DNA of 64,000 bases, taken from an uncultured Candidatus Saccharibacteria bacterium. Its GTDB lineage: Bacteria > Patescibacteriota > Saccharimonadia > Saccharimonadales > JAGQNJ01. Shown here piece after piece: positions 3,930-22,457 of the stretch (its first letter is position 1; every line of letters starts with the position of its first letter). The DNA is taken from contig CAZEED010000001.1 in the NCBI GenBank assembly GCA_964510945.1, positions 98,774 through 162,773 on the forward strand, read 5' to 3'. The position numbers were made by a program, and so were the translations under genes. The notes below the pieces were generated by a model. It saw only the letters and a program-made list of their open reading frames with translations, was not told the origin of the DNA and searched no databases.

Positions 3930-3955
3930 AAGAAGAATAGGTAAATTACATAAAC

Positions 3956-3983
3956 GGCACTCTTGACCCATGTCAAGAATGCC
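3956..3983 (+). promoter_or_regulatory. Imperfect palindrome GGCACTCTTGAC-N4-GTCAAGAATGCC sharing the GCACTCTTGAC half-site with the two CIRCE-like elements
   Basis: Read directly from the sequence. Lies 27 nt after the nusA stop. Function unknown; possibly a third operator or a terminator-like hairpin. Confidence 0.3.
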
Positions 3984-4030
3984 AAGTATGTTCATCCGCT
4001 GGCACTATCTCTCCAGCGAACTACTCTAAC

Positions 4031-4095
4031 TATTTAGTAATAACTTCACTTTAGTGTAGCTACGGCTACACTAAACTCTGAGTTATTACTAAATA
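4031..4095. repeat. Long imperfect inverted repeat (~30 nt arms) in the nusA-clpC intergenic region
   Basis: tatttagtaataacttcactttagtgtagc / gctacactaaactctgagttattactaaata seen in the sequence. No following T-tract. Confidence 0.4.
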
Positions 4096-4137: not shown

Positions 4138-4175
4138 TTGGCACTCTTGACATGAGAGTGCTAATTTCATAATAT
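4138..4175 (+). promoter_or_regulatory. CIRCE-like operator (TTGGCACTC-N9-GAGTGCTAA) overlapping a sigma70-like promoter (-35 TTGACA 4147-4152, 17 nt spacer, -10 TAATAT 4170-4175) upstream of clpC
   Basis: 8/9 and 9/9 match to the CIRCE half-sites with the canonical 9-nt spacer. The spacer carries the -35 hexamer. Confidence 0.6.
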
Positions 4176-4226: not shown

Positions 4227-6701
4227 ATGCACCCAAATTCATCTGACTTTCAAGAGTTCTTAAATCACCTGACGGAAAACGCCCTGCAAAGTTTGCGACA
4301 CGCCGACGCTATTGCTCGTAGTGCAAATAGTCCGTACGTAGGTACAGAGCACCTACTGCTCGGTGTATTGGCGCAGGAAGGGTCGTTAGGCTCAAAAGTG
4401 TTAGTTGACGCAGGCGTAACTCTTGATAAAGCTCGGGTTGCGCTAAATCTAAGCCCAAAGAATATCATAATTAATATGGGCGCTAAGGGGCTGAGTGAGA
4501 CCGCAAAATTGACATTAAAAATGGCCTACGATGTAGCACAGGAATTTAATCAAGAGTTCTGCGGGACAGAGCATATTGTGTATAGTATTTTGACTCAGAA
4601 GAATGCTCGAGCCACAGTTTTGGTTAGAGATATGAGAGTTGATGTTGATCGACTAATAACTGAGCTAGAACAATTTTTAAATAAGCAACAATATGATGAG
4701 AACGGCAGTCCGGGTTCAACAAAGCGAGTTAAAAAAGGCAGAAAAACTGCTTTAGACTTTTTTGGCACAGATTTGACCGCTCAGGCAAAAGAAGGAAAGC
4801 TTGATCCAGTAGTTGGTAGAGACCCACAGATCAGACGACTAATCACTATTTTAAATCGTAGAACCAAAAATAACCCAGTATTGATCGGTGAGCCAGGAGT
4901 AGGAAAAACTGCAATCGCTGAGGGGCTTGCTCAAAGAATAGTAAGCGAGGACGTTCCTGACGGTTTGTTGGACAAAAAGATAATAATGCTCGATCTAGCG
5001 GGTATGATCGCAGGGACTAAATACAGGGGCGAATTTGAAGATCGCCTGAAGAAAGTCATGAATGAACTAGAACGAGATAGGAATATTATAATTTTTATCG
5101 ACGAACTTCATTTGATTGTTGGTGCAGGCGCCGCTGAGGGTGCTATGGATGCCGGGAATATTCTAAAACCGGCACTCGCTCGAGGTAAGATTCAGATGAT
5201 TGGTGCTACGACGACAAATGAATATACTAAGCACATCGAGAAAGACGCCGCGTTAGAGCGTCGACTACAGCCCATTCAAGTGCCAGAAACGAACGTTAAT
5301 GAAACAATAGCAATCCTAAAAGGTCTGCGTAAACATTACGAAGCTTTCCACGGAGTAACTATTAGCGATGAAGTTATAACGGATACTGTTCAGCTAGCTA
5401 AAAGGTATATTAATGACAGATTCATGCCTGATAAAGCAATTGATCTTATAGACGAGACTGCGGCGCATCTTCGCCTAGATAAAGGTAGAACACCACCGGA
5501 AGTGAGAAGGCTTAAACAAGAGCTGAAGTTAGTTAATACCCGTATTGAAGATGCAGTTGATGCGGAAGATTACGAGAGAGCCGCCCAAAATAAACAAAGG
5601 GCCAGTCAGATTCAAGAAGAGCTCAAAAAACTAAATTCAAATGAAAAAGTAAACAAAAAAATTGTTATGAATAGCGAGGATGTCGCCGGAACAGTTGCAC
5701 GTATGACCGGTGTACCAGCTAGAAAAGTTATTAGATCTGAAGCAAAGTATCTGATGAACCTAGAAAAGTCTTTAGGTAAGTATGTTATAGGTCAAGACGA
5801 GGCCGTTGAGGCCGTATCTAAGGCTATTAGACGAAATAGATCAGGAGTTGGTAGCGAAAAACGGCCTGTTGGCTCATTCATTTTCCTAGGACCAACAGGG
5901 GTAGGTAAAACGGAACTTGCTAGAGTGCTGGCTAGAGAATTTTATGGATCAGAAGAAGCGCTAGTAAAAATAGACATGAGTGAATTTAGCGAACGACATA
6001 CTGTTGCGCGTTTAGTAGGTGCTCCTGCAGGATACGTTGGATACGATGATGGCGGACAATTAACTGACAAAATCAGACGTCAACCTTATAGTTTAGTTTT
6101 GTTTGACGAGATTGAAAAAGCTCATCCTGAAGTTTTTAACATGCTACTACAAATATTAGAAGATGGACATTTAACTGACGCCAAAGGACGAAAAATTGAT
6201 TTTACTAACACTATAGTGATTATGACTAGCAATATCGGAGCCGAAAAACTCCAGAAAGAAGCGTCATTTGGCTTTTCGGTAAACACTAGCAAACAATTAG
6301 AAAATCTCGACGAGCTTCACAAAGCCAATAAAGATAAGGTGCTAGATGATTTGAAGAAAATGCTACGTCCAGAACTGCTGAATAGAATCGATAAAACAAT
6401 CGTATTTAGAGCTTTAACGAAAAAAGATATTATTCGAATACTTGATCTTCAGGTTGATGAGTTGAAAGAGCGTTTAGTAAAGCATGGTCTTAGCGTTAAA
6501 CTGACGCCTCAGGCTAAGCAATACATGCTAGACAATGGTTATGATGCCAAAAACGGTGTCCGACCGCTCAGACGGCTCCTGCAAGACACGTTGGAGGACT
6601 ATATTGCATCAGAGCTATTGTCTGACAAATATAAAAAAGGCGACATCATATCTATTGATACAAAAAAACACGATTTGACGTATAAAGTAGCTACTGAATA
6701 A
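4227..6701 (+). CDS. clpC: ATP-dependent Clp protease ATPase subunit ClpC-type (Clp_N, two AAA+ modules)
   Basis: Two Walker A motifs ([16 protein letters not shown]). N-terminal Clp repeat domain. Short middle domain typical of ClpC rather than ClpB. Confidence 0.88.
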
Positions 6702-6725: not shown

Positions 6726-7694
6726 ATGAATTCCAGAAAGAAATCATTTGAGATATTCATTGTTTTCTGTTTATTGTTGGTTGGATTAGGATTTGTCTTT
6801 CGACAGGATTTGATGGATTGGTACACGCTCAGGACCTATGACCCTCCGGCATCTATTGAAAAAATAACAAAAACCAATAAATTCACCGAGTCAGGAAAAA
6901 GATATTTTTATGTAGCTCGTCCCGCGATCGTTAGAGGGGCACAATTTAATCAAAAGTGTCGGGATGGTTTGCCGACAGAGTTTTCTATAGTCCTGGGGTG
7001 TTATATCAATACTGACGGTATCTATCTTTTTAGAGTCACGGATAAGCGATTAAATGGAATTGTAGAAGTAACAGCAGCACATGAAATGTTGCATTCGGCA
7101 TACGACCGATTAAACAGTGATCAAAAAAACGAAGTAGATAAAATGTTGCAAGAAGCTTACCAGGGAATAAAAGACGTTAGGATTAAACGAACGATCGAGC
7201 AATACAAGCAACAAGATCCCTCGAGTGTCCCGAACGAACTACATTCTATACTCGGAACAGAAGTCGCAAATTTGCCCGAAGATCTCGAAAATTATTATAA
7301 GCAATATTTTAAAGATAGGACCACTATTACAGATCTGTCGTCTAGCTATGAATCAGAATTTAGCTCAAGACAGAATAAGGCCGACCAAATTGGCTTGCAG
7401 CTTTCGGGCCTTAAGTCTGAAATTGATTCCGCCCAGCAGTCAGCTAATCAAAAGCGCGCCCAACTCTTAGGTGATAAAAGTTCGTTAGATGATTTATTGG
7501 CGAGCGGAAAAACAGACGAGTATAATTCGCGTGTCGATTCATTCAATAACGAAGTCGCTGTTTACAACGCACTCGTTAAGCAAATTCAAACAAAAATAAA
7601 GTCGTATAACTTGCTGGTAGCCGAGTACCAAGACGTTTCTGTAGAGATAAATGATTTATATCAATCTATAGACAGCCGTCCAAAGTCCCTGTAA
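6726..7694 (+). CDS. Hypothetical membrane-anchored protein with HEMLH motif and C-terminal coiled-coil region
   Basis: N-terminal TM helix (IFIVFCLLLVGLGFVF). HEXXH-like HEMLH. Q/S/L-rich heptad-like C-terminus. Confidence 0.6.
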   Translation: MNSRKKSFEIFIVFCLLLVGLGFVFRQDLMDWYTLRTYDPPASIEKITKTNKFTESGKRYFYVARPAIVRGAQFNQKCRDGLPTEFSIVLGCYINTDGIYLFRVTDKRLNGIVEVTAAHEMLHSAYDRLNSDQKNEVDKMLQEAYQGIKDVRIKRTIEQYKQQDPSSVPNELHSILGTEVANLPEDLENYYKQYFKDRTTITDLSSSYESEFSSRQNKADQIGLQLSGLKSEIDSAQQSANQKRAQLLGDKSSLDDLLASGKTDEYNSRVDSFNNEVAVYNALVKQIQTKIKSYNLLVAEYQDVSVEINDLYQSIDSRPKSL

Positions 7695-7714: not shown

Positions 7715-9049
7715 ATGGCAAAACAGCAAAGAATGTATGTTTGTAGTAATTGTGGTGCTGAGTCTATTGTCTGGGCGGGAAAATGTCAGAGTTGCCAAGA
7801 ATGGAATACTTTAGAAGAAGTAGTAATCGAGAAGAATGTCAGTAAAAGCGCTTCTAAAACGGAAATAAAAATTGTTAACGCAAAAGATGCAATCAACAAT
7901 TTTGAAAAACGAATTGTTGTTGGAATAAGTGAAGTTGATAAAGTTTTGGGCGGAGGATTGGTTAAGGGTGGAGTTGTATTAATTGCTGGAGAACCCGGAA
8001 TTGGAAAAAGCACTCTTTTGTTACAGATGGCCGATGGTTCGGGTGAAAAATCGAAAGTTTTATATGTTAGTGCAGAAGAATCTATTCATCAAGTCGGTCT
8101 GAGAGCGGGTAGGTTAGGAGTAGAAAAAAGTAATATTTCTTTATCGGACGAAACAGATGTGGATTCAATCTCAAACGCGATAAGTTCAAAAAAATTTGAT
8201 GTAGTGATAGTGGATTCTATTCAAACTATATCTACAAATCTACTATCAAGTTCATCTGGTTCTATTAGCCAAATCACTAGTTGTGCTCATATGTTGATCG
8301 AAGCAGCAAAATCATCAAATACAGCAATTATGATCGTTGGACATGTCACTAAAGAGGGAAGTATTGCTGGACCAAAGATCCTCGAGCATCTTGTTGATGT
8401 AGTATTACAGCTGGAAGGTGATAGATACGGTGGCTTTAAATTACTGAGGAGTATAAAAAATCGTTTTGGGAGTACCAATGAGGTGGCTATTTTGGAAATG
8501 GCTGAGAATGGACTAAGAATAGTAGATAACCCTTCAAAAGAACTGCTAAAAGAGCGGCAAATAACTGATGGATCGGTAGTGCTAGCTACAATGGAAGGCA
8601 CACGGCCAGTGCTAGTTGAGGTTCAGGCGCTTGTAAACAAAACTGCCTACGGCTACCCTAAACGCACCGCTAGTGGATTTGATATAAATAGGCTAAATCT
8701 TCTGATTGCAGTTCTAGAGAAAAGGACTAAGCTAAATCTTGCCGATAAAGATATATACATTAATATCGTTGGGGGTATTAGAGTGACCGAGAATGCCGCT
8801 GACCTAGCTGTTTGTATGGCTATAGGATCAGCGGCGAAAGGTCTTAAACTAAAAACTAACTCTGTGGTTTTTGGAGAAATTGGACTAAGCGGTGAAGTTC
8901 GGCATGTTGCAAGTGTTGAAAAAAGAATTCTAGAATCAACAAAAATGGGTTTTAAACAGACGATTGGGCCAAAATCAATGGCCGTAACTAGCCCAAATCA
9001 TTACCGAGCTAAAGATATTCGTACAACTTTAAACGACTTCTTGAAATAG
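7715..9049 (+). CDS. radA: DNA repair protein RadA/Sms
   Basis: N-terminal C4 zinc finger (CSNCGAE..CQSCQEW). RecA-like Walker A GEPGIGKST. Lon-protease-like C-terminal domain. Confidence 0.9.
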   Translation: MAKQQRMYVCSNCGAESIVWAGKCQSCQEWNTLEEVVIEKNVSKSASKTEIKIVNAKDAINNFEKRIVVGISEVDKVLGGGLVKGGVVLIAGEPGIGKSTLLLQMADGSGEKSKVLYVSAEESIHQVGLRAGRLGVEKSNISLSDETDVDSISNAISSKKFDVVIVDSIQTISTNLLSSSSGSISQITSCAHMLIEAAKSSNTAIMIVGHVTKEGSIAGPKILEHLVDVVLQLEGDRYGGFKLLRSIKNRFGSTNEVAILEMAENGLRIVDNPSKELLKERQITDGSVVLATMEGTRPVLVEVQALVNKTAYGYPKRTASGFDINRLNLLIAVLEKRTKLNLADKDIYINIVGGIRVTENAADLAVCMAIGSAAKGLKLKTNSVVFGEIGLSGEVRHVASVEKRILESTKMGFKQTIGPKSMAVTSPNHYRAKDIRTTLNDFLK

Positions 9050-19995: not shown

Positions 19996-20024
19996 TTGAC
20001 AAAACCACCCTTAACTTATACAAT
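19996..20024 (+). promoter_or_regulatory. Consensus-like promoter (-35 TTGACA, 17 nt, -10 TACAAT) ending 6 nt before an ATG (possible leaderless start)
   Basis: Read directly from the sequence. Confidence 0.45.
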
Positions 20025-20030
20025 AGTGTG

Positions 20031-20408
20031 ATGTCAAGGAAACCCGAATTAAACTTTGAAGACGTTCGTTCAAATGAAGATTTAGTGAATCTAGGTGTTG
20101 AGCTAGAAAGAAGATACCCTGAGCTTGAACTTGGAATTCTAACAGTCATGTCAAGATACATTGATACACAAAGAGGACCGAATGATGTTGATAACGCAGT
20201 TAACGGATTAAAAAGTTTGGTTATGAGCGGCATCGATCATAGCGACATGACTGAACAAGTAGTACAACCTCATGGTAGCGCACTTACCTCAACTACGTAC
20301 AGAAGGCTCGAAAGACGAGGAATCCTACCTGCTTTTCGGGTTGACGTATCGAAGTCGTCAGCACCAGATCATGGGGTCATTGGAAAGATCTTAACACGTA
20401 AAAACTAG
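20031..20408 (+). CDS. Hypothetical protein (about 125 aa), possibly translated from a leaderless mRNA
   Basis: ORF between tig and clpP. No recognisable motifs. Stop overlaps the CIRCE-like element. Confidence 0.35.
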
Positions 20409-20431
20409 CACTCTTGACACGAGAGTGCCAA
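20405..20431 (+). promoter_or_regulatory. CIRCE-like operator (CTAGCACTC-N9-GAGTGCCAA) with embedded TTGACA -35 upstream of clpP
   Basis: Matches the CIRCE consensus TTAGCACTC-N9-GAGTGCTAA at 16/18 positions. Lies 40 nt before the clpP ATG. Confidence 0.6.
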
Positions 20432-20470
20432 TTAATGTATTCTATTTGTACAATAAAAGGAGAGAAAATA

Positions 20471-21070
20471 ATGTCCACGAAAGCATCATCAGTATTAATC
20501 CCGACAGTTATTGAATCAGATGGTAGAGTTGAACGGGCTTATGATATATATTCGCGTTTACTCAAAGATCGAATTATATTTTTAGGCACAGACGTTAACG
20601 AGCACACTGCTAATTTAATTGTTGCTCAATTGCTGTTTCTTGAGTCTGAAGACCCAAAGAAAGATATTAAGCTATATATCAATAGTCCAGGTGGTAGTGT
20701 TTATGACGCTCTGGCAATTTATGACACTATGCAGTTTGTAAAAAACGACATAGAGACGGTTGGAATCGGTATCCAAGCTAGTGCAGCGGCATTTTTATTA
20801 AGCTCTGGAACTAAAGGTAAGCGGTTTTTGCTAAAAAACGCCACGGCAATGATCCATCAGCCTTCAGCAGGTACTCGTGGCAAGGTTACTGATATGGAGA
20901 TTGACCTTAAAGAAGGTATAAGAATTAAGCATAAATTAAACGAAATTATGGCCAAAAATACCGGTAAACCTATCAAGCAAGTCGAAAAAGACATGGACCG
21001 AGATTATTGGATGACATCTGATGAAGCAGTAAAATACGGCCTAGCCGACAAAGTCATCACCAACCGCTAA
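20471..21070 (+). CDS. clpP: ATP-dependent Clp protease proteolytic subunit
   Basis: ClpP family (Ser-His-Asp protease fold, GxSxG region with ASAAAF, MIHQP). ATG 20471 with AAAGGAGAG RBS, in frame with the longer track ORF. Confidence 0.9.
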
Positions 21071-21082
21071 AATACCCACTTT

Positions 21083-21682
21083 ATGAGTACATTGCAAAAT
21101 CGATCTGAAAAATATTTAGTATCAGTTGCCGAAGCGACTCAATGGATTGTTGAAATGGGTTTACCGGAAGAACATATACCCCAATACAATTCTTTAAATA
21201 GATTGTATTGGGGTGGACATTTTGGTCAGGCAGTAATAGTTCTCGCTAACCAAGAGCCAGTAAATCGCAGTATGGATCTAGGTCTAATCTATGCCGCAGT
21301 AAGTGCTCGTAACTCTTGCAGCTATTTGGGGACACCAATTAAATCTCGACAAGATCAATTCGCTAAATCGTATAGTAAATTCGGTAAAGCATGGGCAGCT
21401 GCAGATAATAGGTTCCAGAAGGGATTAGAGCCCAGTATGATGGGTGCGTTAGCATTTGTGTTCGCTCCATCAAAGAGCGAATTAAGTTCTCCAATACCTG
21501 GTGGTGTACTTATCGCGGCACATCCCTCAAATTCTGAATATTTGCCGGATTTCTGCGGATTGTATGGGTGGGATACTAATAGATATGCGCCTTTTGAGGA
21601 TGAAGATCATAAAGTCGGCGCAGCAGAAGACCATTACCCTAATAGACTCGGATTCCTATTACCTGAAGTTCAGCCAAACTAG
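21083..21682 (+). CDS. Hypothetical cytoplasmic protein (199 aa)
   Basis: ORF with no recognisable motifs. Occupies the position where clpX normally follows clpP. Confidence 0.55.
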   Translation: MSTLQNRSEKYLVSVAEATQWIVEMGLPEEHIPQYNSLNRLYWGGHFGQAVIVLANQEPVNRSMDLGLIYAAVSARNSCSYLGTPIKSRQDQFAKSYSKFGKAWAAADNRFQKGLEPSMMGALAFVFAPSKSELSSPIPGGVLIAAHPSNSEYLPDFCGLYGWDTNRYAPFEDEDHKVGAAEDHYPNRLGFLLPEVQPN

Positions 21683-21824: not shown

Positions 21825-22457
21825 ATGGCGAAACTAGAACAGATAACTGCACATCGAGCTACTACACAATTAATGCCAGTGCGTCGGTTCGTCGAAAGAC
21901 ATAGATTTGATTTATCAAGAAATGCACCAGCTACACTTGATCGTTTCGGATCATTTTTCTCAACCGTTGTTAATGTGGGTAGATACGCAATCGATCCGTC
22001 AATCTTACAGTTTTTAGTCAGAGAAGATAAAACAAACCGCATGATGGGATTTGCAACTATAATTCCTAACATTGTTGTTGAGCCGCCGGTAGGAGCAGCT
22101 GTTACAGGAAATTATCTTGATTACGTTCTCTCTGACTCGGTATCAGAGTCAATTCACGAGTCTGTTTCTAAGGCTTTACTTAGACGGAACGAAAAGTATG
22201 AACTAAAATATCATGGCATATCAGAGTCTAGATTTGTCGGAGAAGAAACGTATGCTCAAGTGAATACTATTGCAGTTAATCGGTTCCCTGAAAGAGATAG
22301 GTATGACATACCCAACAGGGGTTTAATCCGAATGATTCCACCCCTAACGGGGGTAGTTTCGCTTGAATCACCACAAGTTACTGGTCTTGAAACGCAAGGA
22401 TTCGTTCCTTCAGATCAGGTTGTGTTTCACTATATGTCAAACCGAGCAGTCAGTTAG
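21825..22457 (+). CDS. Hypothetical protein (210 aa)
   Basis: ORF with no recognisable motifs. Sits 39 nt after the clpP-fragment copy. Confidence 0.55.
   Translation: MAKLEQITAHRATTQLMPVRRFVERHRFDLSRNAPATLDRFGSFFSTVVNVGRYAIDPSILQFLVREDKTNRMMGFATIIPNIVVEPPVGAAVTGNYLDYVLSDSVSESIHESVSKALLRRNEKYELKYHGISESRFVGEETYAQVNTIAVNRFPERDRYDIPNRGLIRMIPPLTGVVSLESPQVTGLETQGFVPSDQVVFHYMSNRAVS

Follow-up and report, generated by a model that had tools for sequence, protein, structure and literature searches.

In the Bacillus subtilis-type HrcA-CIRCE system, a winged-helix repressor of about 340 amino acids acts on dnaK and groESL through an inverted repeat with 9-nt spacing, the hrcA-grpE-dnaK genes are autoregulated, and the CIRCE elements of B. 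subtilis are located at or downstream of the transcription start. The clpP gene of Streptococcus salivarius is reportedly subject to dual regulation, a precedent of the HrcA class, and is said to be additionally under the control of CtsR. The CtsR regulon of the Firmicutes includes clpP, clpC and clpE, and its operator is a direct heptad repeat. To our knowledge, gene regulation in Saccharibacteria and the wider candidate phyla radiation is almost unexplored, and a literature search returned no paper linking HrcA to either. The CIRCE consensus is quoted as TTAGCACTC-N9-GAGTGCTAA (PMC545781, PMC8762339), and in the established model HrcA is inactivated by heat or unfolded protein (PMC8762339). 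[quoted passage not shown] HrcA is the most conserved transcription factor in Mollicutes, where its regulon comprises clpB, lon, dnaK and dnaJ and functional CIRCE sites have up to 2 mismatches (PMC4245973, PMC5138195). In addition, clpL is under HrcA control in Lactobacillus gasseri, according to a citation in PMC3192767. The reach of HrcA beyond groE and dnaK therefore already has precedents in Mollicutes, L. gasseri and S. salivarius.

A CIRCE-type repeat is found upstream of clpP in the stretch of DNA analysed here (64 kb, referred to as the window), which, judged by the relatives of its ClpP, comes from Saccharibacteria (TM7). The repeat is composed of the left arm CTAGCACTC (20405-20413), the spacer TTGACACGA (20414-20422) and the right arm GAGTGCCAA (20423-20431), and departs from the consensus at 2 positions, 1 and 25. 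The spacer has 9 nt and the GCACTC-N9-GAGTGC core is free of mismatches; by sequence, the predicted operator is a canonical HrcA-CIRCE site. With up to 3 mismatches allowed, the window contains 2 CIRCE matches (4138 and 20405) compared with 0.03 expected from shuffles, and both precede Clp genes, clpC and clpP, respectively. A half-site scan permitting any spacing of 4-20 nt returned 3 sites only, namely these two and one at 3957 with a 14-nt spacer. The CIRCE ends 39 nt before the clpP ATG and overlaps the predicted clpP promoter, TTGACA-18-TATTCT, which has 10/12 hexamer matches in a promoter scan and satisfies sigma-70-type criteria (16-18 nt spacer). As had been claimed in the original prediction, TTGACA is present inside the CIRCE spacer, of which it forms the first six positions. 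The prediction of a TGnTATTCT-type -10 box was borne out for TATTCT and its 18-nt distance but not for the TGn, the sequence being aaTGTATTCT: the TG abuts TATTCT directly and the promoter scan also reports no TG, so that clpP lacks a TGn extended -10. An alternative promoter, GTGCCA-18-TACAAT, was rejected, as transcription would start within the Shine-Dalgarno sequence and the -10 box of relatives is found 5-6 nt after the CIRCE. The coordinates of all features are given in Table 1.

Table 1. Features of the clpP and clpC upstream regions in the 64-kb window
Feature	Position	Strand	Basis
Palindrome GGCACTCTTGAC-ccat-GTCAAGAATGCC, TTGAC part of each arm	3954..3985	.	Directly after nusA
Sister CIRCE TTGGCACTC-N9-GAGTGCTAA ahead of clpC (4227-6701)	4138..4164	.	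Consensus scan, Pfam
CIRCE-type inverted repeat, predicted HrcA operator of clpP, CTAGCACTC-N9-GAGTGCCAA	20405..20431	.	Consensus match and 59 orthologous sites
-35 hexamer TTGACA, within CIRCE spacer, register a	20414..20419	+	Promoter scan; -10 tracks register over 58 sites
-10 hexamer TATTCT, 18 nt past -35, 6 nt past CIRCE	20438..20443	+	Promoter scan; same 5-6 nt offset in 32/34 register-a sites
Predicted transcription start	20450..20451	+	Inferred from usual ~7 nt spacing after -10
Shine-Dalgarno AAGGAGAG	20457..20464	+	GGAG end 8 nt before ATG
clpP, 199 aa, PF00574 (E 1e-77)	20471..21070	+	Pfam; 199-aa gene calls on identical contigs; tblastn from residue 1

The layout of promoter and operator also fixes the clpP start codon. 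A longer ORF (20414-21070) opens at the TTG at 20414, which is the TTG of the -35 hexamer. The ATG at 20471, already favoured in the original prediction, is preceded at a distance of 8 nt by AAGGAG (20457-20462), homologues in relatives align from residue 1 (tblastn) and independent gene calls on identical contigs give a ClpP of 199 aa, all of which supports 20471 as the predicted start. The window clpP has a 5' leader of ~20 nt with the AAGGAG, and the gap between -10 and start codon is 27 nt. Start codons located only 6-8 nt past the -10, with no Shine-Dalgarno sequence, are found at 30 of 58 clpP promoters (57 relatives and the window; loci L007-L068), and leaderless genes look common from these sequences.

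To place the site among its orthologues, clpP loci of ~6.5 kb each from 80 species-level Saccharibacteria relatives (loci L007-L086) were compared, allowing up to 3 mismatches to CIRCE; the closest species in the genome collection scanned has a ClpP 82% identical. A CIRCE is located immediately upstream of clpP in 59/80 species and is the sole strong site of each locus. Across these 59 sites the GCACTC/GAGTGC core is nearly invariant, positions 2, 4-6, 8-9, 19-20, 23-24 and 26 are invariant, and variation falls mainly at positions 1, 3, 25 and 27, which include both mismatches of the window. Strains sharing an identical ClpP show differences in the element at positions 25 and 27 and at a single base of the spacer, and nowhere else. 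With 2 mismatches, 2 sites per 64 kb and orthologous sites in this many relatives, the CIRCE-like element claimed ahead of clpP is real; it is also a fairly ordinary regulatory switch, of a design common to dozens of related species. About 20 of the 80 species, mostly from one clade, have no CIRCE at clpP. Among them are L069-L086 except L070 and L072, loci labelled Nanosynbacter or animal-associated, of which the 13 whose Tig sequence could be used group together as a single clade on a Tig tree. The predicted link between HrcA and clpP is hence not universal in the phylum. Southlakia epibionticum, a human oral G1 member, has hrcA, which suggests a change in regulon membership and not the loss of the regulator: clpP seems to have left the regulon in the clade without the CIRCE, or to have joined it in the other.

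The CIRCE spacer at clpP contains TTGAC in 57/59 relatives and TTGCA in the other 2, and TTGAC is found in one of two registers. In register a it abuts the left arm (33 relatives and the window, 34 sites), and in register b, shifted onwards by 4 nt, it is adjacent to the right arm (24 sites). In 32/34 register-a sites the best TAnnnT box begins 5-6 nt past the CIRCE, and in 23/24 register-b sites 8-10 nt past it, which keeps the hexamer spacing at 16-18 nt in both registers (58 sites, that is 57 relatives and the window). Since the -10 box shifts by ~4 nt with the register, TTGAC is the -35 hexamer and not part of the operator. Nor does the operator require TTGAC, because the second CIRCE copies found past the -10 at dnaK and hrcA on metagenomic contigs have it in 0/33 cases among the matches listed. 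The GCACTCTTGAC shared between elements is then best read as an operator arm plus a -35 hexamer, not as a longer operator. This comparison supports, and explains, the earlier proposal that operator and -35 were co-opted together. On a rough neighbour-joining tree of Tig proteins, which is to be read qualitatively only, registers a and b are interspersed, two sister pairs (L007/L013 and L050/L044) differ in register, and with register a, register b, other and none as the four states, Fitch parsimony arrives at a total of 15 changes. The two -35 registers with their tracking -10 boxes thus amount to a clean natural experiment on the co-evolution of promoter and operator.

The composite module is not confined to clpP. 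A scan of metagenome contigs for YTRGCACTCTTGACNNNNGAGTGCYAR (TTGAC variant only) returned at least 123 sites on at least 120 contigs. The first ORF downstream is hrcA-like at at least 35 sites, dnaK at at least 23, clpC/clpB at at least 17, hsp20 at at least 10, an FmdB-type zinc ribbon gene and clpP at at least 5 each, groES at at least 4, and groEL and dnaJ at at least 1 each, with various genes at the remaining sites listed. Among the matches listed, 96/111 downstream ORFs are hrcA, chaperone or Clp genes, and a TAnnnT box is found 5-6 nt after the module in 93/118; a motif scattered over unrelated genes as a generic repeat, the outcome that would have spoken against the original prediction, was not seen. 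The core regulon of the lineage, the hrcA/dnaK operon and groES/EL, also bears the CIRCE among the matches listed. The distribution of the module in related DNA is regulon-like. The dnaK and hrcA promoters often have two CIRCE copies, one with the -35 in its spacer (L088, L113, L117, L120, L131, L207 and others), the second mostly starting 18-22 nt after the first, just past the -10 box, and clpP and clpC have a single copy each.

No hrcA gene was found among the window ORFs in Pfam scans of the 64 kb, and its presence in this genome is probable from the relatives. Among the matches listed, hrcA-like proteins from metagenomic contigs are 217-245 aa long, typically ~235 aa (for example L087, L141, L158, L169, L207 and P0001-P0120), compared with 338 aa for T. 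maritima HrcA. They match the Pfam families HrcA (PF01628, model positions ~72-215 only) and HrcA winged-helix (PF03444). Over the first 80 residues they match T. maritima HrcA (1STZ) with an E value of 2e-18, or 1e-22 with a profile, and in a profile search of PDB sequences the short HrcA aligns to 1STZ just at the N-terminal winged helix. An AlphaFold model of the short HrcA, built from a shallow alignment, had a mean pLDDT of 49.6 and was too poor for use. Close relatives of these proteins are labelled Candidatus Saccharibacteria by NCBI and heat-inducible repressor by JGI. One of them, P0036, is encoded by the first gene of an hrcA-grpE-dnaK-dnaJ cluster, ahead of which lies a perfect CIRCE whose spacer contains TTGACA in register a; the sequence following this CIRCE, tttatgTATTAT, is almost the same as that at the same place of the window clpP, ttaatgTATTCT. 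SEML1_0720 of the cultivated S. epibionticum is the same type of protein. In the supplement of PMC10633639, it is assigned to KO K03705 and adjoins grpE-dnaK, its structure-based annotation consists of the 1STZ domains A1 and A3 only, without the inserted dimerising domain, and the transposon-sequencing table lists this hrcA homologue, from a strain that can be genetically manipulated, as 'ES'.

Taken together, we consider it highly probable that the 27-bp repeat is an HrcA site placed over a sigma-70-type clpP promoter, at which HrcA represses by occluding the -35 box and from which it is released upon stress. The -35 hexamer in the 9-nt spacer has one arm on either side (at about -44 to -36 and at -26 to -18), so a bound HrcA dimer would cover the region from about -44 to -18 and exclude sigma region 4. 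In the unstressed cell, the dimer would deny RNA polymerase access to the -35 box and clpP expression would stay low, and the form of repression proposed is promoter occlusion. By analogy with the established HrcA model, unfolded proteins would titrate the chaperones that keep HrcA active and HrcA would leave the site, upon which clpP would be transcribed from ~20450 along with clpC, dnaK, groES, hsp20 and hrcA, which have the same module. HrcA binding, repression, stress induction and the transcription start at clpP are thus what we infer from the better characterised systems. Several points count against the HrcA reading. The -10 TATTCT is weak and its spacer is 18 nt long, the short HrcA is ~100 aa below the length of characterised HrcA proteins, which bears on dimer geometry, and a promoter upstream (19996-20024) with no terminator before clpP could allow read-through that escapes occlusion of the -35.

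The repeat could alternatively act at the RNA level, as a hairpin serving as a terminator or as a stability or processing element on read-through from tig or the upstream orphan gene. Its 9-bp stem folds at -12.6 kcal/mol (z = -3.8), the upstream ORF has its TAG stop (20406-20408) within the left arm, and clpP is preceded by no other terminator. Still, we regard this as very unlikely: there is no U-tract, a terminator scan returned no terminator-like site, and many unrelated heat-shock genes have this sequence too. In relatives it is the bases of the arms themselves that are conserved, and no covariation is seen, as would be expected of a site read by a protein; nor would the clpP mRNA contain the repeat, since its start is predicted further downstream. 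Nothing but the AT-rich context speaks for a palindrome that arose by chance or for a generic repeat dispersed without a part in regulation, and a chance origin of the clpP site is effectively refuted by the excess over the 0.03 sites expected, by its recurrence, once per locus and in the same place, in 59 species and by the predominance of hrcA, chaperone and Clp genes (96/111 among the matches listed) downstream of the module.

If the repeat is a protein-binding site, the protein concerned need not be HrcA: a CtsR-, HspR- or ClgR-like regulator or a so far undescribed Clp-gene factor could occupy it, given that clpP and clpC are classic CtsR targets in Firmicutes and that hrcA is not among the window ORFs. 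However, the CtsR box RGTCADN-NAN-RGTCADN has 4 matches in the window against 2.4 expected, and the HAIR pattern CTTGAGT-N7-ACTCAAG has chance-level matches with 3 mismatches only, none of them at promoters; neither pattern exceeds chance or is found near clpP or clpC. The site is furthermore a near-perfect CIRCE, the motif is also located ahead of hrcA, dnaK and groES in relatives, and the HrcA DNA-binding domain is well conserved, which makes another regulator as improbable as the RNA hairpin. It is a shade less probable again that HrcA acts here as an activator, in the manner of class II activators, whose position overlaps the -35. With its centre near -31, the site does overlap the -35, and the weak -10 might need help, but all characterised HrcA proteins are repressors (PMC545781, PMC8762339) and a perfect -35 TTGACA needs no activator. 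Moreover, the operator centre shifts by 4 nt between registers and would turn another helix face towards RNA polymerase, a poor fit with activation.

Repression of clpP by HrcA, as proposed here, has the inverted repeat, the 9-nt spacing, a homologous winged-helix repressor and an autoregulated hrcA-grpE-dnaK in common with the B. subtilis-type system. It differs in that clpP is a target, in that the -35 is inside the spacer and in that the Saccharibacteria repressor has ~235 instead of ~340 aa. In contrast to S. salivarius clpP, there is no CtsR box at the window clpP. The Mollicutes HrcA regulon is likewise that of a genome-reduced lineage and reaches a Clp ATPase and a protease. However, Mollicutes are unrelated to Patescibacteria, clpP and hsp20 are included here, and no spacer-embedded -35 has been described for Mollicutes (PMC4245973, PMC5138195), whose promoters are largely without a -35. 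Stress-inducible repression of clpP and clpC would be an output shared with the Firmicutes CtsR regulon, which uses another repressor and a direct heptad repeat operator not found at the window promoters. A literature search, which was not exhaustive, returned no description of a CIRCE with the -35 in its spacer or of the short repressor. Judged from sequence comparison, a known system is varied here by a spacer-embedded -35 with its two registers, a short HrcA and a regulon of wider reach.

We lean slightly towards a more general proposal, that in Saccharibacteria, and apparently in other Patescibacteria, one CIRCE/-35 module serves hrcA, dnaK, groES/EL, clpC, clpP and hsp20, that the ~235-aa HrcA without the inserted dimerising domain is a single master regulator replacing sigma-32 or CtsR, and that the -35 has moved repeatedly between two registers with the -10 following. 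If this is true, a single composite operator/promoter module and a truncated repressor run the whole proteostasis set. The clpP site itself would provide a concrete regulatory circuit in which the HrcA regulon is extended to the Clp protease, as in other genome-reduced bacteria, and the promoter/operator pair could become a stress-inducible expression tool in genetically manipulable Saccharibacteria strains.

The promoter of clpC, which encodes a ClpC-type ATPase, consists of TTGACA (-35, 4147-4152) and TAATAT (-10, 4170-4175) separated by 17 nt, and the same module is found ahead of clpC on at least 13 metagenomic contigs. A third element, at 3956, had been grouped with the clpC and clpP sites as sharing GCACTCTTGAC. 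The shared sequence is indeed present in all three, exactly at 3957, 4141 and 20408, but the 3956 element is not a canonical CIRCE, as its half-sites GCACTC and GAATGC are 14 and not 9 nt apart. At up to 1 mismatch, GCACTCTTGAC has 4 matches in the window compared with 0.75 expected, and the 1-mismatch copy on the minus strand (3972-3982) is the other arm of the 3956 palindrome. Similar palindromes are located ~180 nt upstream of the clpC CIRCE on 4/13 clpC contigs listed (L103, L137, L139 and L176). A TATGTT box lies 18 nt after the TTGACC of the 3956 palindrome, and a TATGTT-like box is also found in the recurring elements. The palindrome might serve clpC, or a small RNA, as a second promoter or operator. 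Between it and the clpC CIRCE, the window has a long hairpin (4030-4095) with a stem of ~30 bp. Relatives have both its inner stem (GTAGC-TAYG-GCTAC) and its outer stem, and compensatory changes are seen at 18/30 predicted pairs, in 4 sequences only. Rfam searches gave no match in the tig-clpP spacer and just hairpin-like matches below each family threshold in the nusA-clpC spacer, so no known RNA family explains either spacer.

Downstream of clpC, a 322-aa ORF with no Pfam match (6726-7694) precedes a radA/sms-like gene (7715-9049), a neighbourhood that recalls the clpC-radA arrangement of Firmicutes but is without ctsR or mcsAB. Around clpP, the gene order hisS-tig-clpP-rpoB-rpoC is conserved and matches that of the cultivated S. 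epibionticum given in the supplement of PMC10633639. Three orphan ORFs with no Pfam match, 20031-20408 (125 aa), 21083-21682 (199 aa) and 21825-22457 (210 aa), interrupt this otherwise conserved tig-clpP-rpoB block in the closest strains only, and some strains have a different 143-aa ORF in the orphan-ORF spot. The 125-aa orphan ORF has its own predicted promoter, TTGACA-17-TACAAT (19996-20024), and its ATG follows 6 nt after the -10.
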